A stretch of DNA of 64,000 nucleotides, from contig JAVKIA010000008.1 in the NCBI GenBank assembly GCA_031459715.1, positions 5,186 to 69,185 on the forward strand, in the 5' to 3' direction. Below are positions 34,236 to 56,470 of this stretch, piece after piece. The position numbers were made by a program, and so were the translations under genes. Source of the DNA: Candidatus Humicultor tengchongensis. Lineage in GTDB: Bacteria > Sysuimicrobiota > Sysuimicrobiia > Sysuimicrobiales > Humicultoraceae. Position 1 is the stretch's first letter. The number at the start of each line of letters is the position of its first letter. Below the pieces are notes generated by a model. It made no database searches. It was given only the letters and a program-made list of their open reading frames with translations, and was not told the DNA's origin.

Positions 34236-34475
34236 CTAGGAGGCCTCGCGCTCCAGCATCATCACCACCTGCTGCCGGTTGAGCAGCGCCACCGGCGCCT
34301 CGTAGAGCAACTGCCCGTCCAGGGTGTAGACGCGGGCGTTGGTTATGGGCAGGAAGTCCCGCGCCTGGTTCAAGCGGTCGGAGATGCGGGCGGTCGGGGG
34401 CAGCGGCAGCTCGCCGTCAATGCGGTGCAGCAGGGTCCAGACCACGATAGGCTGGCGCTCCAGTTGGATCTTCAC
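34236..34475 (-). CDS. Small hypothetical protein, translationally coupled to the MerR gene
   Basis: GTG overlaps the MerR stop (GTGA) and is preceded by GGAGGGGAGG. 79 aa, family not recognised. Confidence 0.5.
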   Translation of the reverse strand: MKIQLERQPIVVWTLLHRIDGELPLPPTARISDRLNQARDFLPITNARVYTLDGQLLYEAPVALLNRQQVVMMLEREAS

Positions 34476-34750
34476 CGGCCTCCCCTCCCCTCGGCGGCCA
34501 GCTCCGCCGGTGGATGGGCCTGCAGCACCCGCTGGATGCCTTTCAGGCTCATCCCCCGGTCGACCATGGCCTTGATCCAGCGGATCCGTTCCACGTCCTC
34601 CTCGGAGAAGAGGCGGTGCCCGCCGCCGGTGCGCGCCGGCGCGATGAGGTGGTACTGCTCCTCCCAGGCCCGGATCCGCCGGGGGTTGACGCCGGTGAGC
34701 TGGGCCACCGTGCGGATGGGGTAGATGGGCGCTTCCCGGTCCACGATCAT
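34472..34750 (-). CDS. Short MerR-family HTH transcriptional regulator (no effector domain)
   Basis: YPIRTVAQLTGVNPRRIRAWEEQYHLIAPARTGGGHRLFSEEDVERIRWIKAMVDRGMSLKGI is a MerR-type HTH plus wing. GGAGGA lies 9 nt before the ATG. Confidence 0.85.
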   Translation of the reverse strand: MIVDREAPIYPIRTVAQLTGVNPRRIRAWEEQYHLIAPARTGGGHRLFSEEDVERIRWIKAMVDRGMSLKGIQRVLQAHPPAELAAEGRGGR

Positions 34751-36322: not shown

Positions 36323-36418
36323 TCACCGTCCGCAGGAGGGGCGCGGCGAGCACGCTTCCCGGGAACTTCTGACAAACTCACTGCGCTCTTCGATCAGGTT
36401 TGGATGCAACCGCAGCGG

Positions 36419-36445
36419 ATAGTAGGCTGAACCTCCGCATAGCAA
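36419..36445 (-). promoter_or_regulatory. Candidate promoter for the dnaB-like/merR/pilB string (TTGCTA-15 nt-TACTAT)
   Basis: Read on the minus strand in a locally AT-richer patch of the 228-nt divergent intergenic region. The spacer is short, so this is weak. Confidence 0.2.
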
Positions 36446-36550
36446 GTAGCCATATGCCCACAACCCGGGCCGCCTAGTCGCCGTCTGGTTTGCCCCGCGC
36501 CGGGGCATGAATCCCCTGGACCCAGCACCTCACGTGCCTGCGGAGATCCT

Positions 36551-38839
36551 GTGAGCGACGCCATCCGCCTGGAGGAGTACAAAGCCCGCCTGGGCCTGCC
36601 CCCGGAGGACCGGGTGCTGGAAGCCGCCCTGCGCTACCACGAGGCGCGGGCGAAGGCGCAACAGGGTCCGGTGGAGGAGGCCATCACCCTCTACCGCCGT
36701 CTCCTCGACCTGCTGCCCGACGAGCCCTGGGTCTACGTGGATCTGGTGGACCTGTACCTGCTGCGCGGGGCGACCGAGGAGGCGGTGGGCCTGCTGCTGG
36801 CCCTGGGGGACGTCTACCTCCGCCTGGGGCGCACCGACGGGGTGCTGCGAGCCTACCAGCAGGCGGCGGCCCTGGCCCCCCACGACCCGCAGATCCAGGC
36901 CCGCCTGGCCGCCTCTCCCGCCGCGTCGCCTGAGGCTCCCCCCCTGCCGCGCAGTCCCGCGCCTGCCCCTCCGCCTCCCGTCACCGCCCCGGGCTCCCCG
37001 GACGGGCAGGTGGGACCGCCTTCGTCGGGGCCCATGCCGACCCGGCCCACGCAGATGAAGCCCGCCGAGAGCACACCCTCCGCCCCCGGCCCGACACAGG
37101 CCGGGACGGAGGCGCGGCCCCAGGCCCCGGTGCGGCGCGGCACCCGGGTGGGGGGGCGGCGCACCGAGACCCTGGGGACGGTGCTGCAGGAGATGGGGCT
37201 GCTCACCCCCGAGCAGCTCTCCCAGGCCCTGGAGATCCAGAGCCGCACCGGGGAACGGCTGGGGCAGATCCTCCTGGACATGAAGGTGATCACCGAGGTG
37301 CAGCTGGCGCAGGCCATGGGCCGCCAGTGGGGCTACCGCTACGTCAACCTGACCGAGGTGAAGGTGGACCCCGACGCGGTGAAGCTTATCCCCCACTCCC
37401 TGGCCCTGCGGCTGCGGGTGATGCCCGTGACCTGGGAGCGCGGCCGGCTGGTGCTGGCCATGATCGACCCCTTAAACGTCATCGCCGTGGACGACGTCCG
37501 CCTGATGACCGGGCAGGAGGTGGAGCCGGTCATCACCACCGAGGACGACCTGCTGGCGGCCATCAACCGCCACTACCAGATGGAGACGGCCAGCGAGGCG
37601 GTGGCGCAGGAGGCCCTGGAGACGGCCGAGTCCAGCGAGGACGAGGTCTCCATCGAGCTATTGAAGACCCTGGTCGAGGACGCTCCTGTGGTCCGCCTGC
37701 TGAACACCATCATCGACGAGGGCATCCGCCAGGGGGCCAGCGACATCCACATCGAGCCGCAGCGGACCGGCCTGCTGGTGCGCTACCGCATCGACGGGGT
37801 GCTGCACGACGTGATGAAGCCGCCGCGGGACGTGCGCGCCGCCCTCATCTCCCGGGCCAAGATCATGGCCGACCTGGACATCGCCGAGCGGCGCCGCCCG
37901 CAGGACGGGCGCATCCACTACAAGTCCCCCAGCCGCACCGTGGACCTGCGGGTCTCCACCCTGCCCACCATCTTCGGGGAGAAAGTGGTGATGCGCATCC
38001 TGGACCAGTCCACCCCGCTCATTGGCCTTAACCGGCTGGGCTTCCACAGCGACACGCTGCGCCAGTGGGAGCAGGCCATCAGCACCCCCTACGGGATGAT
38101 CCTGGTCACCGGACCCACCGGCAGCGGCAAGACTACCACCCTCTACGCCACCCTGGGGACCATCAACAGCCTGGAGAAGAACATCGTCACCGTGGAGGAC
38201 CCGGTGGAGTACCAGTTGCCGCGGATCAACCAGGTGCAGGTCAATGTCAAAGCCGGGCTGACTTTCGCCAGCGCCCTGCGCAGCATCCTCCGCCAGGACC
38301 CGGACATAGTCATGGTGGGGGAGATGCGCGACCGGGAGACCGCGGAGATCGGCGTGCAGGCGGCCCTCACCGGGCACCTGGTTCTCTCCACCCTGCACAC
38401 CAACGACGCCGCCTCGGCCATCACCCGGCTGGTGGACATGGGGATCGAGCCCTTCCTGGTGGCTTCCTCCACCGTGGCCATCCTGGCGCAGCGCCTGGCC
38501 CGCCAGATCTGCCCCCACTGCAAGATCGCCTACACCCCGCCCCCCGACGCGCTGAAGCGGCTGGGACTGGACCCGCAGCGGGAGGTCTCCCTCTTCCGCG
38601 GCCAGGGGTGCGAGGAGTGCCGCTTCACAGGCTATCGGGGACGCATCGGCGTCTTCGAGCTGCTGATGATGAGCGACGCCATCCGCGAGCTGGTGGTGCG
38701 GCGCGCCCCCTCCTCGGAGATCAAGGCTCTGGCTGTGCGGGAGGGGATGCAGACCCTGCGCGATGACGGCCTGGAGAAGGTCCTCTCCGGCGTCTCCACC
38801 ATCGATGAGATCCTGCGGGTGGTCTACGTCGCCGACTGA
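36551..38839 (+). CDS. pilB: PilB/GspE-type ATPase (copy 2) with a long TPR-like + Pro-rich N-terminal extension
   Basis: GTG start lies 5 nt after GGAGA. GPTGSGKTTT, VMVGEMRDRETA, LTGHLVLSTLHTN and CPHCK...GCEECR are present. Residues 1-115 are helical TPR-like and 120-205 are Pro-rich. Confidence 0.9.
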   Translation: MSDAIRLEEYKARLGLPPEDRVLEAALRYHEARAKAQQGPVEEAITLYRRLLDLLPDEPWVYVDLVDLYLLRGATEEAVGLLLALGDVYLRLGRTDGVLRAYQQAAALAPHDPQIQARLAASPAASPEAPPLPRSPAPAPPPPVTAPGSPDGQVGPPSSGPMPTRPTQMKPAESTPSAPGPTQAGTEARPQAPVRRGTRVGGRRTETLGTVLQEMGLLTPEQLSQALEIQSRTGERLGQILLDMKVITEVQLAQAMGRQWGYRYVNLTEVKVDPDAVKLIPHSLALRLRVMPVTWERGRLVLAMIDPLNVIAVDDVRLMTGQEVEPVITTEDDLLAAINRHYQMETASEAVAQEALETAESSEDEVSIELLKTLVEDAPVVRLLNTIIDEGIRQGASDIHIEPQRTGLLVRYRIDGVLHDVMKPPRDVRAALISRAKIMADLDIAERRRPQDGRIHYKSPSRTVDLRVSTLPTIFGEKVVMRILDQSTPLIGLNRLGFHSDTLRQWEQAISTPYGMILVTGPTGSGKTTTLYATLGTINSLEKNIVTVEDPVEYQLPRINQVQVNVKAGLTFASALRSILRQDPDIVMVGEMRDRETAEIGVQAALTGHLVLSTLHTNDAASAITRLVDMGIEPFLVASSTVAILAQRLARQICPHCKIAYTPPPDALKRLGLDPQREVSLFRGQGCEECRFTGYRGRIGVFELLMMSDAIRELVVRRAPSSEIKALAVREGMQTLRDDGLEKVLSGVSTIDEILRVVYVAD

Positions 38840-39828
38840 CCGCGCCGGGCCGCCCGGCCGGAGCGTCCAATGACGCGCGGCTGCGGCACTTGCCAGAGGC
38901 CGGAGATGGGCAGGGCATACAGGTTGTCCCCAAAGGGCACAGCCTCCTCGCCGAAGTAGAGGAGGATTCCCCGGAGGAAGCGCCGCCCGGCGGCCTGGGC
39001 CAGGACGCGCAACCCCCGGAAGTCGCCGGCGTCGATGGAGACGGCCGCCTTGATCTCCACGCCGACCACTCTGCCGTCGGGGGCCTCCAGGACCACGTCC
39101 ACCTCCTCCCCCCGCGCGGTACGGAAGTGGTACAGCGAGCAGCGCGTGGCGCTCCACCCGGTCTGCTTGAGCAATTCAACGACCACAAACGCCTCGACAA
39201 ACGCTCCCCACAGTTCCACGTTCGCCAGCATGCCCCGACTGTCCAGCCCCACCAGATGCGCGGCGAGCCCGGTGTCAACCAGCAGGATCTTGGGGGACTT
39301 CAGCAGGCGCCGGCGCACCCCCGGCGTCCACGCCGGCAAGAGATACAGGAGGAATGCTGTCTGCAGGAGCGCCAGGTACCGCTGCAGGGTGGTCAGCGGA
39401 ATTCCCAGGGTGCGGGAGAGGTCGGCGGCATTCAGCAGGGCCCCCATCCGCCCCGCCAGCGCGCTGAGCAACCGCGGGACCTCGTGCAGCCGCTCGATCG
39501 CCGCCAGGTCGCGCACGGTGCGCTGCGATATCGTGGTAAGGTAGGAGCGGAACCATGCGGGACGACGGGAGGAGGCCCGGAGGACAACCTGGGGGAATCC
39601 CCCGCAGGCGATACGCCGCGCTACCTCTTCCCGAGGCACCACGGTGGCCCGCAGGGAAAATGTGGAAGCAAAGGCCCGATCAATGAAGTCCTCGACCACA
39701 CCGTCGATCTCGCCCTGCGAGAGTGGCCACAGGGTGAGGACCTCCATACGCCCGACCAGGGACTCGGACAGGCGGGGGAGCAGCAAGACATTCGCGGAGC
39801 CCGTGAGCAGCGGGTGAAATTCACCCAC
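38824..39828 (-). pseudogene. 5'-truncated AAA_14/DUF4143-family ATPase remnant
   Basis: The ORF begins at ...GEFHPLLTGSANVLLLPRLSESLVGRMEVLTLWPLSQGE, the end of the AAA_14 domain, and continues through DUF4143 (KILLVDTGLAAHL...). The Walker A/B region (about 100 aa) is missing. Only 38 nt separate it from the upstream gene. Confidence 0.6.
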
Positions 39829-39866: not shown

Positions 39867-41237
39867 TTACTGGTCTTTCCAGGCGCGCAGCCGGGTGAAG
39901 CTGCCGTAGGTGGGCGAAGCGATCTCCGCCGTGGGGTCGTAGGTGAAGACGAAGTCGCGGTCCACATCCACCGTCTGAGCCAGGACGGCGCCGTACATCT
40001 TGCCGATGTAGCCCACGGCTCGGTCCTCGTCCCAGCGCCCGTTGGGCACGATGAACGTGCCCACCACGATACTGGCCCGGTCGATCTGCACCGCGGCGGG
40101 ATCCTGGGCGGTGGAGCGGACGTAGATGCGCAGGCGGCCGGCGGGAGCCGGCTGGGGCGTCTCGGCGGTATCCGTGGGCAGCATGCCGAAGCGGCCGTAC
40201 TGCCCGACAACCAGCCCCTGGCTGCTGAGCTCGGCCACACGCAGCTCCACCTTCCCCTCCCCCAGCAGGATCAGCCGGCCGCAGCGGCCCAGGCGCAGGG
40301 TGCGCACGTTGACCACGGTGGTGGTACCGGCCGCGCCGGTGTCGATGCGCAGGTCCGTGAAGGGCGTAGCACCGGTGCAGCCGCCCGACTCTCCGGCCGC
40401 CTCCAGGACGATCTCGTCCCAGTCGTACCCGGTGGTGGCGTCCATGGTCCACCCCGCGGTGGTCACGGTGCGGTCGTTGGTTCCGGGGGAGAACTCGGGC
40501 AGCGCCACCGTCGGGCAGATGGGGCCGGGGGCGTAAGGCGTGGTCGTCCCCTGGACCTGGGTGGCGCACCCCTGCGAGCAGGTGATGGGACCCGTGGCCC
40601 GGGCGCTGCCCGTGTAGTAGCCGTTGTTGGTGTACGGCGGCGGGGGATCGGCGCGCACCCGAGCCGGGCTGCTGGCCGGGCCGAGCAGGCTGATGGAGCC
40701 GTCGGCGGCCACGTCCCCGTAGATGGTGATACCCTGGTTCACCGTGACCGAGGTGTAGGCGCAGATGACGTAGGGGCTTGTGCCCTGCGGAAACCCCTCC
40801 ACCGTCACCACCACTGTGCGGGTGGGCCCGGGCACAGACAGCGTGGCCACGGAGACGATGCGGCGGAAGGCGGCGGTGGCGCCGCTGCACGGCGGGGGCT
40901 GGCCGTCCAGGCAGCTAACGGTGACCGCCGCGCTGCCCAGCACGCTGCCTCCGGCCTCCAGGGTAACGGTCTCTCCCCGGTAGCCCACCGCCCCTGGCTG
41001 CTGCAGCCGCCCCAGCGCGTAGTGGATACCCGCCTCGGCGATGTTGAAGACGCGCACCGCCTGCAGCTGCCGGATACCCGCGGAGAGGTCGGCGGCGATG
41101 AAGCGCATCACCCCCAGGGTGATCACGGTGACAAGCCCCATCATCAGGAGGATGTACATCATCACCGACCCGGCGGCGGTGCCGGGGACGCCGACCGCGG
41201 TAGGGCTAGATGTCCTCGTTGGGGTTCTTCCAGGCAT
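39867..41237 (-). CDS. PilX-N-domain pilus protein (set C, 456 aa)
   Basis: ...GSVMMYILLMMGLVTVITLGVMRFIAADLSAGIRQLQAVRVFNIAEAGIHYAL is a PilX-like N-terminus. The start is uncertain (ATG 41237 overlaps the upstream gene by 32 nt; alternatives near 41165). Confidence 0.65.
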   Translation of the reverse strand: MPGRTPTRTSSPTAVGVPGTAAGSVMMYILLMMGLVTVITLGVMRFIAADLSAGIRQLQAVRVFNIAEAGIHYALGRLQQPGAVGYRGETVTLEAGGSVLGSAAVTVSCLDGQPPPCSGATAAFRRIVSVATLSVPGPTRTVVVTVEGFPQGTSPYVICAYTSVTVNQGITIYGDVAADGSISLLGPASSPARVRADPPPPYTNNGYYTGSARATGPITCSQGCATQVQGTTTPYAPGPICPTVALPEFSPGTNDRTVTTAGWTMDATTGYDWDEIVLEAAGESGGCTGATPFTDLRIDTGAAGTTTVVNVRTLRLGRCGRLILLGEGKVELRVAELSSQGLVVGQYGRFGMLPTDTAETPQPAPAGRLRIYVRSTAQDPAAVQIDRASIVVGTFIVPNGRWDEDRAVGYIGKMYGAVLAQTVDVDRDFVFTYDPTAEIASPTYGSFTRLRAWKDQ

Positions 41238-41961
41238 TGGCGTTGGGCTCGGGGTTGCGCAGCATCACGTCGCGCGTCCAGGTCTGGGCCTGCACGCCGG
41301 AGGAGCCCTGCGACGCCTGGACCGTGAGCGTGATTCGTATCAGGCGGATGCGCCGGATCTCTGCTGGGGAGGCCAGGTCCACTACCCGCAGGCCGGCGCT
41401 GGAGTAGTAGTCGAAGGTCAGGGCCGTCACCGTGACCCGAGGGTCGGAGAGGGGGATGGTAACCGGTGCGGCCCCCGGGGCGCAGGACTGCTGGTATTCC
41501 AGGACGACCTGGGTGCCCGTCTCCGGATCGGGACCCAGGAAGTAGCCCAGGGTGATCACCTCGTTGCCGGCGACCGTATCGCTGTTCAGGATCTCCCCGC
41601 TGACGTATACCGCCGTCGCTGTGGGCCGCAGGGCGGCGTCTTCAGCCACGACCATGTCCCGGCAGCGCGCCTCGCTCTGCTCTGCGGGGACCAGGTTCAA
41701 CCCGGCGTTGCGCAGCCGCTCCGACATCCACTCCAGGGTCTGCCGCGCCGTCTCTGTGTCGGCAGAGCGCACCGCCACGATGAGCTTGCTGCGGACCGCC
41801 GCCCCCACCAGCGTGGTCATGGATCCCGCCAGCGCCGCCATCAGTCCCATCACCACCAGCACCTCGATCAGGGTCATCCCGGCGGGACCGGGCCGGGATA
41901 CCCGTCCGGCCCTCGCTGCAGGGAGACGGGGCACGCTAGGGCGTGCTGAAGTTGGCCACAT
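41206..41961 (-). CDS. PilW-like prepilin-type minor pilin (set C)
   Basis: ...RPGPAG|MTLIEVLVVMGLMAALAGSM is a prepilin motif with Met at +1. The start is ATG 41961, or GTG 41934. Confidence 0.72.
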   Translation of the reverse strand: MWPTSARPSVPRLPAARAGRVSRPGPAGMTLIEVLVVMGLMAALAGSMTTLVGAAVRSKLIVAVRSADTETARQTLEWMSERLRNAGLNLVPAEQSEARCRDMVVAEDAALRPTATAVYVSGEILNSDTVAGNEVITLGYFLGPDPETGTQVVLEYQQSCAPGAAPVTIPLSDPRVTVTALTFDYYSSAGLRVVDLASPAEIRRIRLIRITLTVQASQGSSGVQAQTWTRDVMLRNPEPNANAWKNPNEDI

Positions 41962-42379
41962 AGGTACTGAGGATGGTATACGGCGGGGAGTCCGCCCGCT
42001 CGTAAAGCATGACCGTCAGCTTGCGCAGCGGTGGATCCGTAATGTCCCGGGCCTGGATCACGGCGTGGTGAAACCCCGCAGGGATCCGCGGCTCGGTGAG
42101 GTCGCCGTAGGTGGTATACCCGCCGTCGTGGGTCAGGGTGCGGGTCCCGGCGGCCACATCATCGGCCAGGAAGGAGTAGCCCTGCAGGCGCAGGTAGTCC
42201 AGCTCGGCCTGCACCCAGGCCGCGGCCTCAGCCCTCACCTTCCCCCGGCGCGCCTCGGTCATGCCGTAGAGCAGCCCGCCCAGGACCGTGGTGGCCATCA
42301 GGGCCAGCACGGTGGTAGCCACGACCAGCTCCACCAGGGTGAAGCCCGCCTCGTCTTCCCCGACGCGGGGGATCAGCAC
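41936..42379 (-). CDS. PilV-like prepilin-type minor pilin (set C)
   Basis: MLIPRVGEDEAG|FTLVELVVATTVLALMATTVL. Confidence 0.8.
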   Translation of the reverse strand: MLIPRVGEDEAGFTLVELVVATTVLALMATTVLGGLLYGMTEARRGKVRAEAAAWVQAELDYLRLQGYSFLADDVAAGTRTLTHDGGYTTYGDLTEPRIPAGFHHAVIQARDITDPPLRKLTVMLYERADSPPYTILSTYVANFSTP

Positions 42380-42388
42380 CGCTGCACC

Positions 42389-42877
42389 TCAGGGCTCGCT
42401 GTAGGACACCCGACCCGTGCCCTGGGTGATGCGCACGGTATATGTGCGCCCGGTGGTGGTGTTGGTCACGGTAATGGTGCCCGCGGCCAGGGGCACGCCG
42501 CGGCGGTTGAAAGAGCAAGCAGCCGCCGGGCAGGTGGTGCTGAGGACGATGTCCTCGGGAAGGAGGGCCTGGCGCAGCGTCCCTCCGTCGGCGGCGCCGA
42601 CGGTGTAGGCGTGGGAGGTGATGCTGACCGTCACCGTGGTGCGGCGCGTCAGGGCGGCCTGGCGGGCGGCGGCGATGTCGTAGGTTATGGTGCGCACCCA
42701 GCCGTCCACCCGCTCTCGGGCCAGGGCCCCGCGCACGCCGGAGATGCTCATCCCCACCACGACGCCCAGTACGCTGATCACGATCACGCTCTCCAGGGTG
42801 GAGAGGCCTGATGCGGTCCAGACAGGGCACACCTTCCAGCACCGGCGGGCGGCGCGGCGCGACCCGGATGGCGACAT
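42389..42877 (-). CDS. FimT/GspH-like minor pseudopilin (set C)
   Basis: ...VWTASG|LSTLESVIVISVLGVVVGMSI has Leu at +1 and Glu at +5. A GspH-like C-terminal domain follows. Confidence 0.72.
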   Translation of the reverse strand: MSPSGSRRAARRCWKVCPVWTASGLSTLESVIVISVLGVVVGMSISGVRGALARERVDGWVRTITYDIAAARQAALTRRTTVTVSITSHAYTVGAADGGTLRQALLPEDIVLSTTCPAAACSFNRRGVPLAAGTITVTNTTTGRTYTVRITQGTGRVSYSEP

Positions 42878-42948
42878 GGCTCTGACGACCTTCCCGTTGC
42901 TGCTCCGCAGGCATTATGCCCGCCGCTGCCCGCCCATAGACACGCCGC

Positions 42949-42981
42949 GGGGGCGTGGACCGGGTGGGAGTCCACGCCCCC
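42949..42981 (-). terminator. Perfect 12-bp GC hairpin (GGGGGCGTGGAC-9 nt-GTCCACGCCCCC) between the Roadblock gene and minor-pilin set C
   Basis: Read directly. No U-tract follows, so a terminator role is uncertain. Confidence 0.3.
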
Positions 42982-43058
42982 ATGCGACGCGGGGGGGCGG
43001 GGTACGATCTCGCACTCCGCGGACTTGCCGCCCTGCAATCCGCGGGGGCGCCCGGATC

Positions 43059-43412
43059 TCAGACCAGCGCCGCGGCCAGCTGGCTGTTGCGCTTCATCTC
43101 CAGACGGATGCGCCCCAGGTTACAGCGGGCATTGCCCACCACCACCAGCAGGGCATCAGGGCCGGCCGGCCCTACGGCCACGGGCCCCTCCTCGAACTCC
43201 ATGAGAAGGCCGCGCATCATCCCGCGCACCATCTCGGTGCCCATGGCCTCCGCCGCCGCCACGTTGCTGGCCACGATGGCGGCGATCCCCTCCAGGTCCA
43301 CATCCTCGGTGGTGATGCCTTCAATGACGAAGCCGTCGCGGCCCACGACCAGCACCGCCAGCACGCCCTCCACCTTGGCCAGCTCCGCCAGGACGTCCTT
43401 GATCTGTGACAT
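43059..43412 (-). CDS. Roadblock/LC7 (MglB-like) domain protein
   Basis: MSQIKDVLAELAKVEGVLAVLVVGRDGFVIEG...ALLVVVGNARCNLGRIRLEMKR matches the Roadblock pattern. ATG at 43412 lies 8 nt after GGGAGGA. Confidence 0.75.
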   Translation of the reverse strand: MSQIKDVLAELAKVEGVLAVLVVGRDGFVIEGITTEDVDLEGIAAIVASNVAAAEAMGTEMVRGMMRGLLMEFEEGPVAVGPAGPDALLVVVGNARCNLGRIRLEMKRNSQLAAALV

Positions 43413-43429
43413 CGTCCGGATCCTCCCGT

Positions 43430-44272
43430 TCACACCGCCGGGTCCAGCAGCGCCCTCAGCTTGGTCAGCGAGTTGGCCAGCACCCGGGAGACGTGTTTTT
43501 GTGAGATGCCGATCCGTCTGGCTGCTTCCATCTGGGTCAGGTCGGTGAAGAAGAGGTAGTAGAGCACCCGCCGCTGCAGCGGGTTCAGCTTTTCCATGGC
43601 CTCGAAAAGCACGATGCGGTCTTCCAGGGGGAGCTGGGTGGCGGTGGGAGACTTGTGCCGGGTGCGGTCGCGGTCGACGCGCAGGTCACCGGTCTCCTCA
43701 TCCGCCTCCAGGGAGATGGTGCGCAGCACCTCCCGCGTCTTCAGGGCCTCCAGGAGTCCTTCCTCCTCCACATTGAGCTCCGAGGCCAGCTGCTCCAGCG
43801 GAGGGAAGCGCCCCTCCTCGCTGATGTACCGGGCCGCCGCCTCCTCGATCTGGTGGTTAAGCTTCTGCAGCCAGCGCGGCTTGCGGATGGTGTCCCGGTG
43901 GTCGCGCAGGTAGTGTCGGATCTCCCCGCGGATGAGGTGGCTGGCGTAGGTGACGAACTTGACCCCGCGTGTGGGGTCGAACATCTCCACGGCATTGAGC
44001 AGACCGATGAAGCCTACCTGCATCAGGTCGTCGCCGGGGACTCCGGAGAAGATGAAGTCGGCCACGATGCGCCGCACCAGCGGCGTGCAGGTCAGGACGA
44101 TCTCCTCCCGCACCGCGGGGTCGCGGGTGGCCCGGTAGCGGGCGACCAGCTCGTCCTCGCCCCGCGCCGGTTGTTGCGGTGGCAGGGACGGCGCCGCCCC
44201 TCCGTCGTGCGGTGTGGACGTGCGAGAGGACGCTGCTGTGGGATATGTGCCCAGCTGGCCACGGGCTGCCAT
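43430..44272 (-). CDS. Group 3 alternative sigma-70 factor (SigB/SigF/SigG subfamily)
   Basis: Region 2 is DLMQVGFIGLLNAVEMFDPTRGVKFVTYASHLIRGEIRHYLRD. Region 4 is LNPLQRRVLYYLFFTDLTQMEAARRIGISQKHVSRVLANSLTKLR. The ATG follows GGAGGGGAG. Confidence 0.88.
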   Translation of the reverse strand: MAARGQLGTYPTAASSRTSTPHDGGAAPSLPPQQPARGEDELVARYRATRDPAVREEIVLTCTPLVRRIVADFIFSGVPGDDLMQVGFIGLLNAVEMFDPTRGVKFVTYASHLIRGEIRHYLRDHRDTIRKPRWLQKLNHQIEEAAARYISEEGRFPPLEQLASELNVEEEGLLEALKTREVLRTISLEADEETGDLRVDRDRTRHKSPTATQLPLEDRIVLFEAMEKLNPLQRRVLYYLFFTDLTQMEAARRIGISQKHVSRVLANSLTKLRALLDPAV

Positions 44273-44401
44273 CGGTGCTCCCCTCCGGCGGCGTGACCCC
44301 GAAAGCCGGTGAGATGCCCGCGGCAGGTTGAGCCTGTCGGGGCAGCAGGCTCAGAGCGGCGATGCATGCAGCGATGTGAGGTGCGATGTCCGCCTGAAAG
44401 C

Positions 44402-44437
44402 GAAGTCCCCCTCGGTGGTGCCACCGAGGGGGACTTC
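44402..44437 (-). terminator. Expression-platform hairpin of riboswitch 1 (17-bp perfect stem)
   Basis: The minus strand reads GAAGTCCCCCTCGGTGG-CA-CCACCGAGGGGGACTTC followed by GCTTTC. The 3' arm is also complementary to GGAAGTCCCC at the aptamer's 5' end. Confidence 0.6.
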
Positions 44438-44444
44438 AAACGCC

Positions 44445-44540
44445 TTTTTCCCTTCGGCAGCCCGGCCGACCGCTTCCCTGGTCCCGTGGCTTTGCGCCCC
44501 CACCTCGCGATGGGTTTGCCTTTTCGGGGACTTCCTATGA
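44445..44540 (-). promoter_or_regulatory. c-di-GMP-I (GEMM-I) riboswitch aptamer, copy 1
   Basis: The minus strand reads GGAAGUCCCCGAAAAGGCAAACCCAUCGCGAGGUGGGGGCGCAAAGCCACGGGACCAGGGAAGCGGUCGGCCGGGCUGCCGAAGGG. This has the hallmark GGCAAACC, a helix capped by GNRA, GCGCAAAGCC-CGGG and ...CGGGCUGCCGA. Compare V. cholerae Vc2. Confidence 0.85.
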
Positions 44541-44556
44541 AGTTGTGCTTCACCTT

Positions 44557-44562
44557 ATTCTA
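44557..44562 (-). promoter_or_regulatory. Candidate -10 box TAGAAT just upstream of riboswitch 1
   Basis: Read on the minus strand in a locally AT-rich patch about 15 nt before the aptamer. No convincing -35 was found. Confidence 0.3.
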
Positions 44563-44673
44563 CACACCTCCCGCAACTCCTGCTGCGTCGCGCAAGAAAT
44601 CTGTCCACAGCGGCCTTCGCCCCACCTTCCGCCGATTCCGCCCGGATCCTCCCGCCCCCTTCACGCCATTTTC

Positions 44674-45711
44674 TCAGGATGCGGACGGCCCGGCGCGGGG
44701 ACGAGGACTGTAGCGGCGGAAGACCAGCCGGCGGTCCACCAGGCCGCTGAGGACACCGTCCACCTGGTCCAGCGGGACGGCCGCCGCGCGCGCAACCTCC
44801 TCGAGGGTGCGGCTGCCGTCCAGCAGCGGGAGCCACCCGACGATCTCCTGGCCGAACCGGATGATCAGGTCGCGCAGCGCCTCGGGTTTGGCCAGGTCCA
44901 CGGTGGGGGCCAGGAGGAAGCGCTCGTCGCCCCGAAATCGACGAGACACCTCACTCCCGGCCGGGACCACCGTGGGCTCCCTGGATTCTGCCGGCACGGG
45001 TAGGGGAGACTCTACAGGTGGCGGGACCGCGGAGGGGGGCTCATCCGCCGCGACCGGGGAAACCGCCTCCGCCTCACCCGAGGGGACGGGCTCCTGCTGC
45101 CCGGGCTCCCGCTGCGACGGGGCGAGCTCTTGCTGTGCGGGCTCCCGCTGCGGTGAAGGCTCCGGGGGCGGGAAGAGGTCCACGGCCACGCGGCCGCGGT
45201 AGATCTGCAGCAGCCCCTCCTGCAAAGGGAAGGTACCGTCTGTCCCGAGGACAGCTCCCTGGTGGAAGCGCGCCGCCCGCACCAGGCCGTCCTGCACGAT
45301 CCACGCGGCCGCAGCATCGCCGATGAGCACGGCGACGCCGTTGAACCCGTGTTGCTGGGCCCACCGGACCCAGGCTTCTGTGGAGACGACCTCCGCCGGC
45401 AGGGCCGGATGTACCAGCGCCAGGTCGCGCAGTGCCGCCGCCCAGCGCGCCGGAAGAGGCACCTGTCCCCAGCGCGGCGGAGGCATCCGCTCCAGGCGGC
45501 GAGCCACTGAGGTGAGGGCGTGCTCCCCCTCCGCCCACCCTTTGCCGTCCCACAGGTGGATGCGGGGACGGCCGTCGACGAAGAGCAGGACCGCCTCGCT
45601 CTCGGGCCAGCGCAGCCAGAGGTAGCCGTTCCACTGGTGCCGCTGCGCCACCCAGGTGGCCCAGCGGGCAGGGGTGAGGACTAGCGACGCAGTGCCGCCG
45701 CGTACCGCCAT
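44674..45711 (-). CDS. Hypothetical protein: two DUF4388-like repeats, a Pro/Gln/Glu-rich repeat linker and a C-terminal wHTH-like module
   Basis: ATG at 45711 overlaps the upstream stop (TGATG). HGFNGVAVLIGDAAAAWIVQDGLVRAARF and QWNGYLWLRWPESEAVLLFVDGRPRIHLW resemble the DUF4388 pattern. The linker is PQREPAQQELAPSQREPGQQEP. The domain call is tentative. Confidence 0.5.
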   Translation of the reverse strand: MAVRGGTASLVLTPARWATWVAQRHQWNGYLWLRWPESEAVLLFVDGRPRIHLWDGKGWAEGEHALTSVARRLERMPPPRWGQVPLPARWAAALRDLALVHPALPAEVVSTEAWVRWAQQHGFNGVAVLIGDAAAAWIVQDGLVRAARFHQGAVLGTDGTFPLQEGLLQIYRGRVAVDLFPPPEPSPQREPAQQELAPSQREPGQQEPVPSGEAEAVSPVAADEPPSAVPPPVESPLPVPAESREPTVVPAGSEVSRRFRGDERFLLAPTVDLAKPEALRDLIIRFGQEIVGWLPLLDGSRTLEEVARAAAVPLDQVDGVLSGLVDRRLVFRRYSPRPRAGPSAS

Positions 45712-46475: not shown

Positions 46476-47291
46476 TCAGTCTCCCTGCGCTGCGGACTGC
46501 AGGATCTGCTTCACGGCGTCCTCGCAGGCGAAGTCTCGGGCCAGCGTCAGCAGCAGCCGCTCCGTGAAGGCCGACCCGGCCACCCGCCGCAGCCCCTCTG
46601 CCACGCGGCGCAGGGCGGCGGCGCCCTGCTCCGGGCTGAGGCGGCCCTGTATCGCGCCCCCGGAGGCGGTGGCGTGTGGTGCCATCGCCGCATTGGCCGC
46701 CTCCTCCAGTTGCAGGGCCAGCGGGCTTCCACGGTGCCGTCGCACCCGCGCCAGCGCCTCAGGCAGCAACCGCTCCCACGGCACAGCTCCCGGGCTGCGA
46801 CCTGAACCCTCACCGCCAGCCGCCACCCGGGGGGTCGGCAGACCGCGCAGCCGGGCCACCAGTCCGGCCCCGCCGCCTGCGGCGCGCCCATCCGCAGGCG
46901 CGCCCCGCCCGTCCTTCTCCTCCGCCCCGCGCAGCGCGGCATCGGCGGCAGCGCCGAGTGGCGGAGCCGACCCCGGATGGACGGAGACCAGCGCGTCCGG
47001 GTCCGCCCACACCAGGCGGAGCGCCGCCAGGGGGTCCTCCTGCTGCAGCAGCACGTCGCCCGCACCCGCGGGCAGCACCCAGGCACCGTGCAGGCGACCG
47101 CAGTCAAACCACAGCGCCGCCTCTCCGGGGCGGCCGGCGGCGTACATCAGGCCGCTGAAGCCACGACGCCGCAGCAGCGCCACCAGCGGGTCGAGACGCA
47201 GATAGGCGGGCCGCAGGTCGTCGTACAGCGGCCGCTCCGCGCGGGCCACCCGCAGCAGCGTCTCCGCTTGCAGCCGGGAGAGGGCAGGCAT
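46476..47291 (-). CDS. Hypothetical protein with a DUF4388-like N-terminal module
   Basis: LDPLVALLRRRGFSGLMYAAGRPGEAALWFDCGRLHGAWVL. The assignment is tentative. Confidence 0.45.
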   Translation of the reverse strand: MPALSRLQAETLLRVARAERPLYDDLRPAYLRLDPLVALLRRRGFSGLMYAAGRPGEAALWFDCGRLHGAWVLPAGAGDVLLQQEDPLAALRLVWADPDALVSVHPGSAPPLGAAADAALRGAEEKDGRGAPADGRAAGGGAGLVARLRGLPTPRVAAGGEGSGRSPGAVPWERLLPEALARVRRHRGSPLALQLEEAANAAMAPHATASGGAIQGRLSPEQGAAALRRVAEGLRRVAGSAFTERLLLTLARDFACEDAVKQILQSAAQGD

Positions 47292-48260: not shown

Positions 48261-49367
48261 CTACTGCCTCACTGCCACAAAGCGCCCCCCGCTGAGGCGC
48301 GCTACCACCACAGCGCCCAGGGGGTCGCCGAAGCGGTCAAACGTCAGGTTGCCGGTGACGGCGGGGAAGCGCCGCAGCGTCGCCACCGCGTTCCGCATCC
48401 GCTCCCGGTCCGCCCCCGCGCGGCGCAGGGCAAAGGCCAGCACGCGCACCGCATCGTAGGCCTGGGCTGCGATCTGCTCGGGTGTACGGCCGTACCGTTC
48501 GCGGTAGGCGGCGACGAAGCTGCGGACAAGGGGGAGGGGGACGTCCGGCAGAAAACCCGCCGGCACGTACAGGTCGTTGGCGACGGTCCCGGCCCAGGTG
48601 GAGGTGTCCTCGGTGTATAGGGCGCCACCTGCTCCGACGGGCAGGCCGGGAGCCGCGGCGCGGGCCTGTCGCAGGAAGAGCGCCCCCTCCGGGGGATACG
48701 CCGCCAGGAAGATGGCCTGCGCCCCCTCGGCGAGAGCCCCCCGGAGGTGCCGGGTGAAGTCCCGCTCCCCCTGCCGGAAGAGGCGACACCCGGTGACGAC
48801 GGCACCCCTGGCCCGGACAGCCTGCTCAAAGGCCAGGGCAACCATGGTCCCGTAGGCGTTGCTGTCGTGCACTACAGCGATGCGGCGCGCTCCTAACCGG
48901 TCCACCAGGTGGGCGGCGACGGCCTGCGCCTGGCTGTGCGCCGGCAGCGCCGTGCGGAAGACGTAGTGTCCGCCGTAGGGCAGCGGGACGGCCGCGCCCG
49001 GCGTGATCAGGACCAGGCGGTGGCGCTCCGCCGCGGGGGCGGCGGCCACGGCGGAGGCGTCGCCAAGCGGCCCGAGGACGGCCACCGCTCCCCGCGCCGC
49101 CAGTGCGGCCACGAGCTGGGGGGCACTCTCGATGGCCCGTTCCTCAAGGCGCAGCAGGACCAGCGGTCGGCCGCGCACGCCTCCGTCGGCGTTGATCTGG
49201 CCTGCGGCCAGCTCGGCTCCCTCAAGGAAAGCGGCCGCACCGCGCGTCCCCTCCGCGGGCGGTACGATCACCCCCAGGGTGAGCGCCGCGCCGGCCGTGG
49301 AGGCGGCCGGCGCGCACGCCGGCAACAGGAGGACCGACAGGAGCAGCCCCCACGGTGGCCGGCTCAT
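48261..49367 (-). CDS. Type 1 periplasmic binding protein (LivJ/LivK-like, Peripla_BP_6) lipoprotein
   Basis: MSRPPWGLLLSVLLLPAC has a lipobox. LTLGVIVPP...GAELAAGQINADGGVRGRPLVLL...YVFRTALP follows. The upstream 70+ codons of the track ORF overlap the riboswitch and are rejected. An alternative ATG lies at 49379. Confidence 0.8.
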   Translation of the reverse strand: MSRPPWGLLLSVLLLPACAPAASTAGAALTLGVIVPPAEGTRGAAAFLEGAELAAGQINADGGVRGRPLVLLRLEERAIESAPQLVAALAARGAVAVLGPLGDASAVAAAPAAERHRLVLITPGAAVPLPYGGHYVFRTALPAHSQAQAVAAHLVDRLGARRIAVVHDSNAYGTMVALAFEQAVRARGAVVTGCRLFRQGERDFTRHLRGALAEGAQAIFLAAYPPEGALFLRQARAAAPGLPVGAGGALYTEDTSTWAGTVANDLYVPAGFLPDVPLPLVRSFVAAYRERYGRTPEQIAAQAYDAVRVLAFALRRAGADRERMRNAVATLRRFPAVTGNLTFDRFGDPLGAVVVARLSGGRFVAVRQ

Positions 49368-49426
49368 CGCTTGCCTCATCAGCCAATGGCACCTTCCTGC
49401 CGGAGGACGTCTCCGGAGCAACGAAC

Positions 49427-49479
49427 GGCGCAGCGCCCTCAGCCTCGCCTGAATGCCGAGAGGCCGAGGGCGCTGCGCC
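49427..49479 (-). terminator. Expression-platform hairpin of riboswitch 2
   Basis: The minus strand reads GGCGCAGCGCCCTC-GGCCTC...GAGGCT-GAGGGCGCTGCGCC followed by GTTCGTT. A long GC stem with a weak U-tract. Confidence 0.5.
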
Positions 49480-49499
49480 AGAATGAACCGTAGCTGTCC

Positions 49500-49610
49500 T
49501 CGCCTGTCGGCAGCCCGGCTGACCCTACCCGCAGCGCGCCCGCGGACGCTGCGGCATCTCCCCTGGGTCCCGTGGCTTTGCGTCCCCACCTCGCGGTGGG
49601 TTTGCCCTTA
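49500..49610 (-). promoter_or_regulatory. c-di-GMP-I (GEMM-I) riboswitch aptamer, copy 2
   Basis: The minus strand reads GCGAUAAGGGCAAACCCACCGCGAGGUGGGGACGCAAAGCCACGGGACCC...GGGUAGGGUCAGCCGGGCUGCCGACAGG. It aligns almost position for position with Vc2 (GGGCAAACCAUUCGAAAGAGUGGGACGCAAAGCCUCCGGCC...GCGGGGUUACCGAUGG). Confidence 0.9.
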
Positions 49611-49655
49611 TCGCAGGCACCTACCCGTCCTTCCCATACCCGGAGCGCGGCCTAC

Positions 49656-50600
49656 CTAGACCCTGCCCGCCCCTGCCGGGTAGACGACACGCAGCCGGCG
49701 GTAGAGGTCGCCCACGTTGCGCACGTAGAGCACCGTCTCCTCGTAGGGCGGGATGCCGCCGTACCGCTGCACCGCGCCCTTTCCGGCGTTGTACGCCGCC
49801 AGGGCCAGGTGGAGGTTTTCCCACCCGAAGTGATCCAGGTTCCCTCGCAGCACGCGTACCGTCCCGTAGATGTTCTGCACGGGGTCGTCGGGGTGGATGC
49901 CGAGGGCGGCAGCCGTCTCCGGCATCAATTGCCCCAGCCCTCTGGCGCCCCGGTGGGAGCGGGCGGTGGGAGAAAATCCGGATTCCACAGCGATGACGGC
50001 GGCAATGAGCCGGGGGTCGAGGTTGTACTGCCGGGAGAACCCCAGGATGGCCTCCGCGATGACCTGGGCGTCCTCTGCGGCCAGGCGGGCGTTGTAGAAG
50101 CGGGCCATGGCGGCGTAGACGCGCGGGTCCAGGGCGGGCGGCCACGCCCCCGCCGGGATGCCGCCCAGGGCCATTCCGCGGATGGCACGCAGCCCCTGGC
50201 GGGCCACCTCCGCCTCCGCCCCCCGGGGGACCAGGAGGAGCGCGCGCTGCAGCGCCCGCTCAGCCTGCGGCAGGTCGCCGCTGGAGGCAAGGGCGTGCCC
50301 CCACCACAGCCAGACGTGTCCGTCTCGCGGAGCAAGCACCGCAGCGGCCCGCAGCGCCTCGGCGCCCTCAAGGGGGCGGCCGAGACGGACCAGCGTGATC
50401 CCCAGCCAGAACCGCGGCTGTGCCTGGCCTCGCCGCTCCCGCACCGCCCGGTGGAAGGCCTCCGCCGCGGCCGCCAGGTGCCCCTGCCGGTAGAGGGCGA
50501 TTCCTGCGTCCAGAGTGGAAGCCGCGGCCAGGGGCGCCGGCCTGGCCGCCGCCACCGCCAGCGCCAGGGCCAGGCCCGCGGCAACCTGCCCGTCCCTCAC
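49656..50600 (-). CDS. Lytic transglycosylase (SLT domain) with an N-terminal TPR region and signal peptide
   Basis: AVIAVESGFSPTARSHRGARGLGQLMPETA...ALAAYNAGKGAVQRYGGIPPYEETVLYV is the SLT catalytic-Glu motif. The GTG start overlaps the upstream stop (GTGA). Confidence 0.85.
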   Translation of the reverse strand: MRDGQVAAGLALALAVAAARPAPLAAASTLDAGIALYRQGHLAAAAEAFHRAVRERRGQAQPRFWLGITLVRLGRPLEGAEALRAAAVLAPRDGHVWLWWGHALASSGDLPQAERALQRALLLVPRGAEAEVARQGLRAIRGMALGGIPAGAWPPALDPRVYAAMARFYNARLAAEDAQVIAEAILGFSRQYNLDPRLIAAVIAVESGFSPTARSHRGARGLGQLMPETAAALGIHPDDPVQNIYGTVRVLRGNLDHFGWENLHLALAAYNAGKGAVQRYGGIPPYEETVLYVRNVGDLYRRLRVVYPAGAGRV

Positions 50601-51001
50601 GTCAGCAGGTCGACCAGCTCGCTGCGGCGCTTCTTGATCGCCAGCCGGGCCCGGGCCACATTGCCCCCCGCACGCAGCACGATCACCAGGAAGTGCTCCG
50701 CCGTGAGCATGACCACCAGCAGGGAGAGGCGGTCGCTGGAGAGGGAGACGGAGTCCACCTCCCCTCCGTCCAGCTTGCGCGCACAGTATGCGCCCAACTT
50801 GAGCAGAACGGCCAGGTCCTGGCCCATCCGCCCCAGGTCGGCCTCCAGGTCCTTGACCACCGCCTGCACCACGGTCCCGTCCATGGCGCCGACCGCCGCC
50901 GCCTGCGCGTCGTCGGGGGTCAGTTCCTGGAGGATCGCCCGCAGGGACATGGATGACTTCGTCAGCGCGTCCAACGACCGGGAGGACTTCGACGACTCCA
51001 C
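50597..51001 (-). CDS. Roadblock/LC7-like protein (second paralog)
   Basis: LRAILQELTPDDAQAAAVGAMDGTVVQAVV...VDSVSLSSDRLSLLVVMLTAEHFLVIVLRAGGNVARARLAIKK. GTG at 51001 follows GGAGGG. Confidence 0.55.
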   Translation of the reverse strand: MESSKSSRSLDALTKSSMSLRAILQELTPDDAQAAAVGAMDGTVVQAVVKDLEADLGRMGQDLAVLLKLGAYCARKLDGGEVDSVSLSSDRLSLLVVMLTAEHFLVIVLRAGGNVARARLAIKKRRSELVDLLT

Positions 51002-51157
51002 TGCCCCGCCCTCCGGCCTCAGGCGGAGCCGTCCGGCGGCGACGGCGGGTATGGCTCGGTACGGGTCGGGTGGCGGCGCGCGCGCACAGAAGCCCCTGGA
51101 GGTCCTGATCTAGCCACTATATGCCCGCGCCTGCGTACCCACAGACCTGGGCCGCGC

Positions 51158-56198: not shown

Positions 56199-56470
56199 CA
56201 CACTCCCCCCAAGAAAAAACCTCTCATCCCAAGGGACGAGAGGTGCTCCCGCGGTACCACCCCGCTTCCGGACCCTGCAGCGGCCCGGCACTTATGCTCG
56301 CGCTAACGGGCGAAACCCGGCGGACTTGAACCCGGGGACCGGCCAGGTCCCGGCGGCGTCGCTCGTCCGCGGCTTGGGGGCGGCTTTCCCCCTGGCGACT
56401 GGAGGCTTGCACCGCCGCCTCCTCTCTTGGGGCCACCCCGGGGATTGACCCCCGCATCGCGGTTGTGGAT
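56199..56470 (-). promoter_or_regulatory. T-box leader (tRNA-sensing riboswitch) of alaS
   Basis: The minus strand carries the conserved T-box sequence GGGTGGTACCGCG (56250-56262; the UGGU bulge fits the A73 discriminator of tRNA-Ala). AGAGAGGAG and GGTGCAAGCC stem-I-like elements lie upstream, and several GCC codons are candidate specifiers. Confidence 0.8.
56211..56243 (-). terminator. Intrinsic terminator of the alaS T-box leader
   Basis: The minus strand reads CCTCTCGTCCC-TT-GGGATGAGAGG followed by TTTTTTCTT. Confidence 0.85.

Follow-up and report, generated by a model that had tools for sequence, protein, structure and literature searches.

Riboswitches for c-di-GMP (cyclic diguanosine monophosphate) are usually described on effector genes, namely pilins, adhesins, flagellar operons and cyclases. 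In Geobacter, riboswitches of the GEMM-Ib subclass are linked to type IV pilus genes. In Clostridioides difficile, the class II ON switch Cdi-2-4 lies before pilA1, and Cd1, an OFF switch of class I, acts on the flgB operon; this includes sigD, whose product SigD in turn activates tcdR (PMC6366702). Control of a group 3 sigma factor by c-di-GMP is also described for Streptomyces, where c-di-GMP arms the anti-sigma factor RsiG and thus controls sigma WhiG (PMC7005675). In Synechocystis, SigF, a sigma factor of group 3, is required for pilin transcription and is autoregulated, with promoter elements TAGGC (-32) and GGTAA (-12) (PMC2532724). Here we describe a locus in a stretch of 64,000 nucleotides (nt) from the uncultured Armatimonadota bacterium Candidatus Humicultor tengchongensis (contig JAVKIA010000008.1; the whole stretch is called the window below, and all coordinates refer to it), in which a c-di-GMP-I riboswitch on the minus strand precedes a gene for a SigF-like sigma factor and, directly after it, a gene for a Roadblock/LC7 protein. 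The reading that we favour, with some reserve about it as a whole, is that this riboswitch gates the sigma factor and the coupled Roadblock protein, turning them off by transcription termination, and that the sigma factor would drive a set of promoters sharing a common motif.

The window was scanned against Rfam at gathering thresholds (Infernal/cmscan with clan competition on), and exactly two matches were returned in its entire length, both belonging to the c-di-GMP-I clan (CL00126). The aptamer upstream of the sigma gene (44452-44529, minus strand) scores 66.5 bits with RF03167, whose gathering score is 59 bits (E value 1.6e-13 for the whole window), and its alignment spans model positions 1-80 of 80 untruncated, so that it belongs to the clan by gathering score and by full model length. 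At each of the two loci one further clan member, presumably RF01051 (gathering score 35 bits), also reached its threshold and was suppressed by clan competition. We regard the assignment of this riboswitch to the c-di-GMP-I (GEMM-I) class as near certain. The first-pass annotation, made from the letters of the sequence, had placed a GEMM-I aptamer on this strand and had named a covariance-model search as the way to verify it; the search agrees, with RF03167 as the best model, and every motif that had been listed is found (GGCAAACC, CCCAUC-GCGA-GGUGGG, GCGCAAAGCC-ACGGG and GCCGGGCUGCCGA), with the small correction that the helix capped by GCGA, given there as 5 bp, has six pairs (CCCAUC/GGUGGG).

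Clan competition assigned both window aptamers to RF03167, the ‘c-di-GMP-I-GGC’ variant, and not to RF01051, and RF03167 also outscores RF01051 in nine orthologues. The cores of the two consensus sequences differ at position 47 of the Vibrio cholerae Vc2 riboswitch, with ACGC-A-AAG in RF01051 and ACGC-G-AAG in RF03167; the variant consensus thus reads ACGCGAAG (G47), and the RF01051 consensus ACGCAAAG. We infer that ‘GGC’ refers to positions 20, 47 and 92. In Vc2, G20, A47 and C92 are the nucleotides that touch c-di-GMP (PMC4744006, PMC5888326). The equivalent positions were read off by aligning the RNA with the consensus lines of RF03167 and RF01051, Vc2 positions 20, 47 and 92 being model positions 10, 37 and 75. 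The aptamer at 44452-44529 carries GCGCAAAG, i.e. the canonical A47, and both window aptamers and all orthologues have either GCGCAAAG or ACGCAAAG, both of which hold A47, so the G47 that defines the variant is missing throughout. G20 and C92 are present in both window aptamers, and model positions 10, 37 and 75 are occupied by G, A and C, respectively, in the window as well as in each of the 10 orthologues. According to work of 2015 by Kellenberger and by Nelson, A20 instead of G is said to mark the GEMM-Ib subclass, which senses 3'3'-cyclic GMP-AMP (3'3'-cGAMP); model position 10 is G in all 10 sequences. This is the comparison of positions 20 and 92 by which the first-pass annotation had meant to tell c-di-GMP from cGAMP sensors, and G20 and C92 are the c-di-GMP contacts. 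A ligand call for the GGC variant was also considered, that family being the best Rfam model, and was ruled out by the absence of its defining G47. With G20, A47 and C92 all present, the RNA is therefore a canonical-contact aptamer that falls outside both the G47 variant and the A20 cGAMP subclass, and c-di-GMP is its likely ligand.

The fold is that of RF01051, comprising P1, the P1b hairpin with a GNRA tetraloop (GCGA in the window, GCGA or GUGA among orthologues), P2 and the interhelical pair C44-G83, both nucleotides of which are invariant in the orthologues. In the orthologue alignment, 100% of the cells in P1b and P2 are paired, with one compensatory pair and several changes from G-C to G-U. 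A trait of this lineage is that G replaces A at model positions 33 and 65, beside the interhelical C-G pair; the aptamer before the sigma gene has G33 and G65, whereas in the second window aptamer and in the two Rfam consensus lines each of these positions is A. The pattern could be a tertiary covariation, though the rule is not strict, the second aptamer of locus L006 having A33 with G65. When metagenomes were scanned for this aptamer subtype, at least 120 instances were recovered, and the Pfam families most common among 91 first downstream open reading frames were Sigma70 (16), Response_reg (11) and GGDEF (9), which is the gene company expected for a c-di-GMP sensor. Across loci L032-L151, the G33/G65 subtype also heads peptidases, CAP-domain proteins, response-regulator and GGDEF genes and, in two cases, sigma factors with regions 1.1 and 1.2 (primary-like).

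The gene governed by the riboswitch (43430-44272, minus strand) encodes a group-3-like sigma factor of the SigB/F/G type, 280 aa long, its ATG at 44272 being preceded by the conserved Shine-Dalgarno (SD) sequence GGAGGGGAG at 44278-44286; both the gene and its SD had been seen in the first-pass annotation. Genes of the window were assigned to families with Pfam and NCBIfam profiles, and selected proteins were compared with the sequences in PDB. In Pfam, the protein matches Sigma70_r2 (2e-15), Sigma70_r4 (2e-12) and, weakly, region 3, and region 1 is unmatched; its best NCBIfam family is TIGR02980 (SigBFG) at 183.9 bits, below the cut-off of 234.35, followed by SigF (PRK07408) at 156 bits, likewise below cut-off. 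The next gene (43059-43433, minus strand) encodes a Roadblock/LC7 (MglB-like) protein of 124 aa that belongs to Robl_LC7 (PF03259; E value 1e-17, 64.1 bits against a gathering score of 23) and that, among PDB sequences, has Roadblock/LC7 proteins and MglB as relatives. The TGA stop of the sigma gene and the GTG start of Roadblock overlap as GTGA, the two genes being translationally coupled. The neighbours of the sigma gene are Roadblock, pilin and binding-protein genes; among the neighbours scanned there is no HATPase_c or STAS match, as would be expected of SigB/F partner-switching genes, and no MglA-type GTPase.

This arrangement is conserved. The 10 closest orthologous loci (L001-L010) were retrieved with the sigma protein from Armatimonadota metagenome-assembled genomes (e.g. 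CSP1-3 and Candidatus Geohabitans), and aptamer, hairpin, sigma gene and Roadblock gene occur together in nine of them and in at least 16 metagenome loci. The nine orthologous aptamers lie upstream of the sigma gene on the same strand, score 59.6-72.7 bits and are 175-225 nt away from it; the aptamer of L006 lies 20 nt before a tblastn match that starts at sigma residue 38. Roadblock follows the sigma gene in each of the nine loci that carry the riboswitch (L001-L008 and L010), with identities to the window proteins of 72-92% for sigma and 90-98% for Roadblock in eight of them, and of 67% and 69%, respectively, in L006. The exception, L009 (Fimbriimonadaceae), whose sigma is 45% identical, has neither aptamer nor Roadblock. 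In the metagenomes, a sigma homologue follows 18 of the 122 subtype aptamers examined for one; 17 of these are the sigma factor studied here and one (L064) is distant (28%), and all sigma-linked instances with enough downstream sequence carry Roadblock. In a divergent group (sigma identity 42-46%), the genes form a one-strand operon in the order riboswitch, sigma, MerR, a 125-aa protein, Roadblock and a PilB-like ATPase of the TPR-MshEN-T2SSE type. The window holds the same parts dispersed, with MerR at 34472-34750, the PilB-like ATPase PilB2 at 36551-38839, a Roadblock paralogue, sigma and Roadblock, and a TPR-MshEN PilB-like gene adjoins sigma-Roadblock in all relatives with enough sequence.

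Between the aptamer and the sigma gene lies a GC-rich hairpin with a perfect 17-bp stem (44402-44437, minus strand), followed at 44393-44401 by the pyrimidine- and U-rich tail GCUUUCAGG (UUCGCUUUC when the UUC at the stem base is included), just as the first-pass annotation had drawn it. The stem is well supported by comparison: of the 14 core pairs, 7 have changed on both sides in a compensatory way, 95% of the cells are paired in the orthologues, no shuffle reached the observed values, and controls with the register slid collapse. The tail is conserved as UUC-NC-UUUCAGG. In relatives of lower GC content, the same hairpin runs into a clear U tract (UCUAAUUUUUCG, UUAUUCUUUUUCC or UUAUCUUUCUUCC), after which SD and ATG come directly; such tracts are seen in L040, L065, L095 and L090. 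The hairpin is therefore read as an intrinsic terminator, and it is the probable terminator of the expression platform. Elsewhere in the window, a textbook intrinsic terminator stands at 56219-56244 (minus strand; an 11-bp stem and then UUUUUUCUU), so canonical U-tract terminators do occur in this GC-rich host genome.

A riboswitch of this design needs a competitor for the terminator, and here the first-pass annotation was right about the principle and not about the helix. It had proposed that the 5' side of P1 pairs with the 3' arm of the hairpin, and a 9-bp complementarity between GAAGUCCCC (5' side of P1) and GGGGACUUC (hairpin 3' arm) is indeed present in the window. Its covariation is matched by 41 of 500 shuffles, its z-scores are -1.6 to -3.3 in the window's clade and about 0 elsewhere, and as a general antiterminator it was set aside for its weak covariation and its absence in other lineages; it may be a clade-specific addition. 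The conserved competitor is a different helix, in which the aptamer 3' strand GCUGCCGAAGGG (44450-44461, minus strand; C92 and the 3' half of P1) pairs with the hairpin 5' arm and would form the 5' half of an antiterminator. A transcript that ends before the 3' arm has this pairing of GCUGCCGAAGGG with the loop and 5' arm as its minimum-free-energy fold, and in the 10 orthologues 90% of the cells of the helix are paired. Competitor helices were compared in 24 sigma-linked relatives by duplex free energy and by z-scores from mononucleotide shuffles: in 22 of the 24, a duplex of -20 to -30 kcal/mol joins the aptamer 3' strand to the beginning of the element downstream. The partner in the hairpin 5' arm differs by clade, being UCGGUGGC in the window's clade and GGCAGCCC in an intermediate clade. 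In the divergent lineage, the aptamer 3' strand and the SD are each complementary to a CCCUCCUUCGGC segment, and there the expression platform is, judged by this complementarity, a translational one of the anti-SD type.

From these elements the following course of events can be proposed. Transcription would start a few bases past the TAGAAT box upstream of the aptamer. Without c-di-GMP, GCUGCCGAAGGG would pair with the 5' arm, the terminator would be blocked, and sigma and Roadblock would be made; with c-di-GMP, P1 and P2 would hold the GCUGCCGAAGGG strand, the hairpin would form and transcription would stop. In all versions of the platform the ligand-bound aptamer releases the repressive element, and OFF regulation is therefore predicted, c-di-GMP lowering the amounts of sigma and Roadblock. 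That the switch works in this direction and by termination seems to us probable, if by no means assured. Less certainly, the sigma factor would then drive GWCTRN-N14-GGGYAT promoters ahead of the minor pilins, a pilin gene, PilB2, the Roadblock paralogue and the operon of the second riboswitch, so that low c-di-GMP would turn a type IV pilus programme on.

The promoter of the riboswitch and sigma gene contains a TAGAAT box, like a -10 element, at 44557-44562 (minus strand), as had been noted at the outset. It is kept in 8 of 10 orthologous leaders, with TAGAAC in L004 and GAGAAT in L010, and the DNA upstream of it is unalignable among them. A sigma-70 promoter scan made no call at the box because there is no -35 match, and a terminator and promoter scan of 42700-44800 called nothing. 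In addition, a near-invariant leader of about 110 nt (44287-44392, minus strand) separates hairpin and SD; its mean column identity is 87% in eight loci, in genomes whose flanking DNA has diverged, as has the N-terminus of sigma, and it is missing from the lower-GC relatives. The leader contains the palindrome UGAGCCUG-N9-CAGGCUCA (also given as TGAGCCTG-N9-CAGGCTCA) at 44329-44353 and the element GCGGGCAU (also given as GCGGGCAT) at 44314-44321. RNAalifold found helices in it without compensatory pairs, an Rfam search of it gave no match at E values up to 10, and the ATG of a possible small open reading frame within it is not conserved. The leader may bind a protein or contain an internal promoter. 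One candidate, an autoregulatory SigF-type promoter (GACAGG-N13-GGGCAT), was rejected as speculation, since it mismatches the invariant T of the motif described below and its spacing differs.

Downstream of Roadblock lies a minor-pilin set (39867-42877, minus strand) of a GspH/FimT-like gene, two N_methyl prepilin genes and a gene for a 456-aa PilX/Y-like protein. Four minor pilins had been claimed here; three are borne out by their families, and the fourth, the 456-aa protein, has only a weak DUF7305 match and no prepilin motif match. The further claim that the sigma operon heads this set has to be given up. The GC hairpin after Roadblock that had been reported (42949-42981, minus strand; 12 bp, or 14 bp with G-U pairs) is present and is the probable 3' end of the operon: it is found in all eight close relatives, with or without pilins downstream, and lower-GC relatives have hairpin and U-tract terminators after Roadblock. 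Minor pilins follow Roadblock in 6 of 10 orthologous genomes and are absent in L002, L004 and L007. Because a conserved hairpin and a promoter of their own stand between, because relatives have U-tract terminators there, and because three relatives have no pilins at this place, the minor pilins appear to be a transcription unit separate from the sigma-Roadblock operon. That promoter is the SigF-like motif GTCTAT-N14-GGGCAT at 42916-42941 (minus strand). The same site in L001, L003, L005, L008 and L010 reads GACTGA or GTCTAT, N14, and GGGCAT or GGGTAT, and a promoter would be expected to show just such a pattern, with its -35 and -10 parts kept around a diverged spacer.

The generalised pattern GWCTRN-N14-GGGYAT occurs seven times in the window against 0.22 expected from shuffles, a statistic that is partly circular because the pattern was derived from the window itself. 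Six of the seven sites are intergenic and correctly oriented; a further promoter of this kind lies at 28917-28942. The motif precedes the minor pilins, the pilin gene 28365-28787, PilB2, a DnaB-like gene, the Roadblock paralogue and the second riboswitch; the PilB2 site, at 36483-36508 on the plus strand, played no part in deriving the pattern and belongs to a second PilB-like ATPase gene of the TPR-MshEN-T2SSE type (motif and gene together 36483-38839, plus strand). In the metagenomes, 11 of 12 motif matches fall in the 16 sigma-bearing loci, which make up 18% of the bases, an enrichment that is confounded by phylogeny. The TAGAAT promoter of the sigma gene is of another type, as would suit a model in which the level of sigma is set by a housekeeping promoter together with the riboswitch, and sigma drives the pilus regulon. 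In the originally suggested cascade from second messenger through riboswitch and sigma to pili, the step from sigma to pilus genes gains support from the SigF-like motif before such genes; we hold it as plausible but tentative, somewhat short of an even chance. The divergent intergenic region 36322-36551 carries back-to-back motifs, one on the side of the DnaB-like helicase (36454-36479, minus strand) and the other on that of PilB2 (36483-36508, plus strand); the DnaB-side motif recurs at the matching position in L002, and similar matches in L040, L065 and L095 were not mapped to genes.

Several observations weigh against the favoured reading and have to be set beside the alternatives. With regard to the RNA, the terminator scan did not call the hairpin at 44402-44437, whose tail UUCGCUUUC is weak; in the six closest sequences, the state with aptamer and terminator is favoured over the alternative by 3-7 kcal/mol, and in L002 and L007, where the 5' P1 strand CCCCGAGA pairs with the 5' arm UCUCGGGG instead, by about 13-18 kcal/mol; and the antiterminator of GCUGCCGAAGGG and 5' arm has zero covariation and z-scores of only -0.5 to -4 with mononucleotide shuffles. 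As the aptamer side is invariant, covariation cannot test this helix, and regulation would have to be kinetic, since no competitor comes near the hairpin in stability. The same stability, the poor U tract and the invariant leader of 110 nt in the window's clade would suit a hairpin that is a constitutive structural, processing or stability element, the aptamer acting through Rho, RNase access or the leader; we think this very unlikely, since lower-GC relatives pair the same hairpin with canonical U tracts and then proceed to SD and ATG with no extra leader. An ON switch, in which c-di-GMP favours read-through, for example via the helix of 5' P1 and 3' arm, has some appeal in that a C. difficile riboswitch turns type IV pilus genes on with c-di-GMP (PMC6366702), that the complementarity of GAAGUCCCC and GGGGACUUC does exist in the window's clade, and that both PilB-like ATPases of the window have MshEN domains, which bind c-di-GMP in other species. 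We nevertheless judge it improbable: the hairpin lies entirely outside the aptamer, so the bound aptamer cannot sequester it, each competitor helix uses a P1 strand that the ligand locks, the helix of 5' P1 and 3' arm would give OFF regulation as well, and in the translational variants the pairing of anti-SD and SD is freed once the aptamer folds. A ligand other than c-di-GMP, whether that of the RF03167 ‘GGC’ class or the cGAMP of GEMM-Ib, would accord with the better scores of RF03167 and with the invariant G of the lineage at the core positions 33 and 65 of the model; set against this are A47 in place of the hallmark G47 in all 10 sequences, G at position 20 where cGAMP sensors have A, the GGDEF genes among those headed by the subtype, and a gathering score passed by RF01051 as well, if it is the suppressed clan member, and we consider another ligand highly improbable.

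With regard to the targets, the circularity and the phylogenetic confounding mentioned above count on the negative side, and the data hold no link between the motif and this particular sigma factor. Accepting the same riboswitch and operon, one may therefore argue that the regulon is not pilus-related and that the motif promoters are read by another alternative sigma factor. The loss of minor pilins after Roadblock in three relatives, the terminator-like hairpin between the two units, the occurrence of the motif before a DnaB-like helicase gene, which is no pilus gene, and the different type of the sigma gene's own promoter all speak for this. Against it stand the TPR-MshEN PilB-like gene found beside sigma-Roadblock in every relative, and in one operon with them in the divergent lineage, and the near restriction of the metagenome motif to loci with this sigma. 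We regard an unrelated regulon as rather unlikely, though it deserves to be taken seriously, and keep to the reading in which a c-di-GMP OFF switch sets the level of a sigma factor that would serve pilus promoters.

The remaining features of the window bear on this system in part. The second c-di-GMP-I aptamer (49505-49615, minus strand) scores 62.7 bits with RF03167, has A47 and a long P2 insertion, and is preceded by the motif GTCTAG-N14-GGGTAT at 49636-49661, aptamer and motif together covering 49505-49661. Within 49300-49661 (minus strand), a 14-bp hairpin, GGCGCAGCGCCCUC...GAGGGCGCUGCGCC, with the tail GUUCGUUGCUCC comes after the aptamer. The operon that it heads encodes a lipoprotein of the Peripla_BP_6 family, a binding protein of the NMT1_3 family and three proteins without a Pfam or NCBIfam match, of which 46476-47291 also has no match among PDB sequences. 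The operon ends just upstream of the sigma promoter and is syntenic with sigma-Roadblock in most relatives. An unannotated protein of 134 aa (50597-51001, minus strand) has a SigF-like promoter motif at 51121-51146. Direct BLASTP of this protein against Roadblock is not significant; the 125-aa intermediate protein of L089 is homologous both to the window Roadblock (E value 2e-9) and to the 134-aa protein (E value 4e-12), and through this intermediate only, the window is therefore seen to encode a second, divergent Roadblock paralogue, whose homologue in the divergent lineage lies within the sigma operon. The sequence after the Roadblock stop (42949-43010, minus strand), including the loop UCCCACCCG, is kept in eight of eight close relatives; CCCCGCCCCCCC, upstream of the hairpin there, could pair with GGGGGCG of its 5' arm, and an Rfam search of the element gave nothing significant. 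It may be more than a plain terminator.

In the window, as in L001, the minor pilins are separated from PilB2 by a DUF4143/AAA_14 ATPase gene (38824-39828, minus strand); L005, L008 and L010 lack it at that place, and it looks like an insertion. Farther away, the window holds a full type IV pilus region, whose cluster (22911-33805, minus strand) contains PilB1 (MshEN-T2SSE), PilT, PilC and two pilin genes, with a 17-bp hairpin after the second pilin gene (28310-28347), and is followed by two PMT_2 genes, one GT2 and one Wzy_C/O-antigen-ligase-like gene, likely a pilin-glycosylation set. MshEN domains are c-di-GMP-binding modules in other species. Those of both PilB-like ATPases carry the RLGxx[IL][LM] motif, and c-di-GMP may therefore act at the protein level too. 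A bolder extension, to which we give little credence, would make the region a self-contained pilus master switch: the sigma factor would be controlled, in place of an anti-sigma kinase and STAS partners, by two proteins of the Roadblock fold (the one coupled to it and the paralogue at 50597-51001, with its sigma-type promoter), sigma would transcribe pilins, a c-di-GMP-binding PilB-like ATPase and the second riboswitch operon, c-di-GMP would be read at three levels in a feed-forward manner, and an internal leader promoter could latch sigma ON.

How does this locus compare with the systems described so far? The aptamer itself is an ordinary member of a well-known class. Like V. cholerae Vc2 (RF01051), it has P1, P1b with a GNRA loop, P2, G20/A47/C92, the interhelical C-G pair, a position in the 5' leader and a mutually exclusive helix; unlike Vc2, it has G at model positions 33 and 65, comes from a GC-rich lineage, fits RF03167 slightly better and heads a dedicated sigma gene. 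It shares with the RF03167 variant the best-scoring model (66.5 bits), a short P2 and GC-rich helices, and departs from it in that the variant has G47 (ACGCGAAG) and the window RNA, in common with all orthologues, A47 (GCGCAAAG). The first-pass annotation knew of no described example of a cascade wired in this way, but the path from Cd1 through the flgB operon with sigD to tcdR in C. difficile (PMC6366702) is a precedent, and the locus therefore introduces no new principle. In full-text literature, whose coverage is incomplete so that absence is weak evidence, this was the only case of a GEMM or c-di-GMP riboswitch with a sigma factor, and nothing relevant was found for Roadblock with a sigma factor.

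Both C. difficile Cd1-sigD and the present locus place a class I c-di-GMP riboswitch upstream of a group 3 sigma factor, there with a motility-linked cascade to toxins. The sigD gene lies deep in a long flagellar operon, whereas here, in a different phylum and a type IV pilus context, sigma is the first of two genes and is paired with Roadblock. Cdi-2-4 of C. difficile and the GEMM-Ib riboswitches of Geobacter likewise tie a cyclic-dinucleotide riboswitch to type IV pilus expression, but they act directly on pilin or assembly mRNAs, and the window riboswitch would act via sigma and is predicted to be OFF. Streptomyces RsiG-sigma WhiG shares c-di-GMP control of a group 3 sigma and differs in being protein-based rather than RNA-based. 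The TAGGC and GGTAA elements of the Synechocystis pilA1 and sigF promoters resemble the window motif G-T-C-TAGG ... GGGCAT/GGGTAT; in contrast to the window, no sigF riboswitch is described in PMC2532724, and the window sigma scores below NCBIfam cut-offs and its recognition of the motif is a prediction. With MglB and MglC of Myxococcus and Thermus the locus has in common the Roadblock fold family, two paralogues and a genomic link to type IV pilus genes, and it differs in having no MglA-type GTPase among the neighbours scanned and in coupling Roadblock to sigma.

What sets the locus apart from its precedent is that sigma heads a dedicated two-gene operon, that its partner is a Roadblock/MglB-like protein and not an anti-sigma factor, and that the context is that of type IV pili. 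Furthermore, the arrangement recurs across several lineages of Armatimonadota, a poorly studied phylum, on transcriptional as well as translational platforms. The coupling of sigma and Roadblock is its least explained and potentially its most novel element. The locus offers two leads, namely a consensus that may describe the promoters of a SigF-like sigma outside cyanobacteria, and the coupling of sigma to a Roadblock/MglB-type protein, which is tightly conserved. With the RNA placed directly before a dedicated alternative sigma gene, rather than before the effector genes on which c-di-GMP riboswitches are usually described, a single ligand-sensing RNA could set a whole transcriptional programme.

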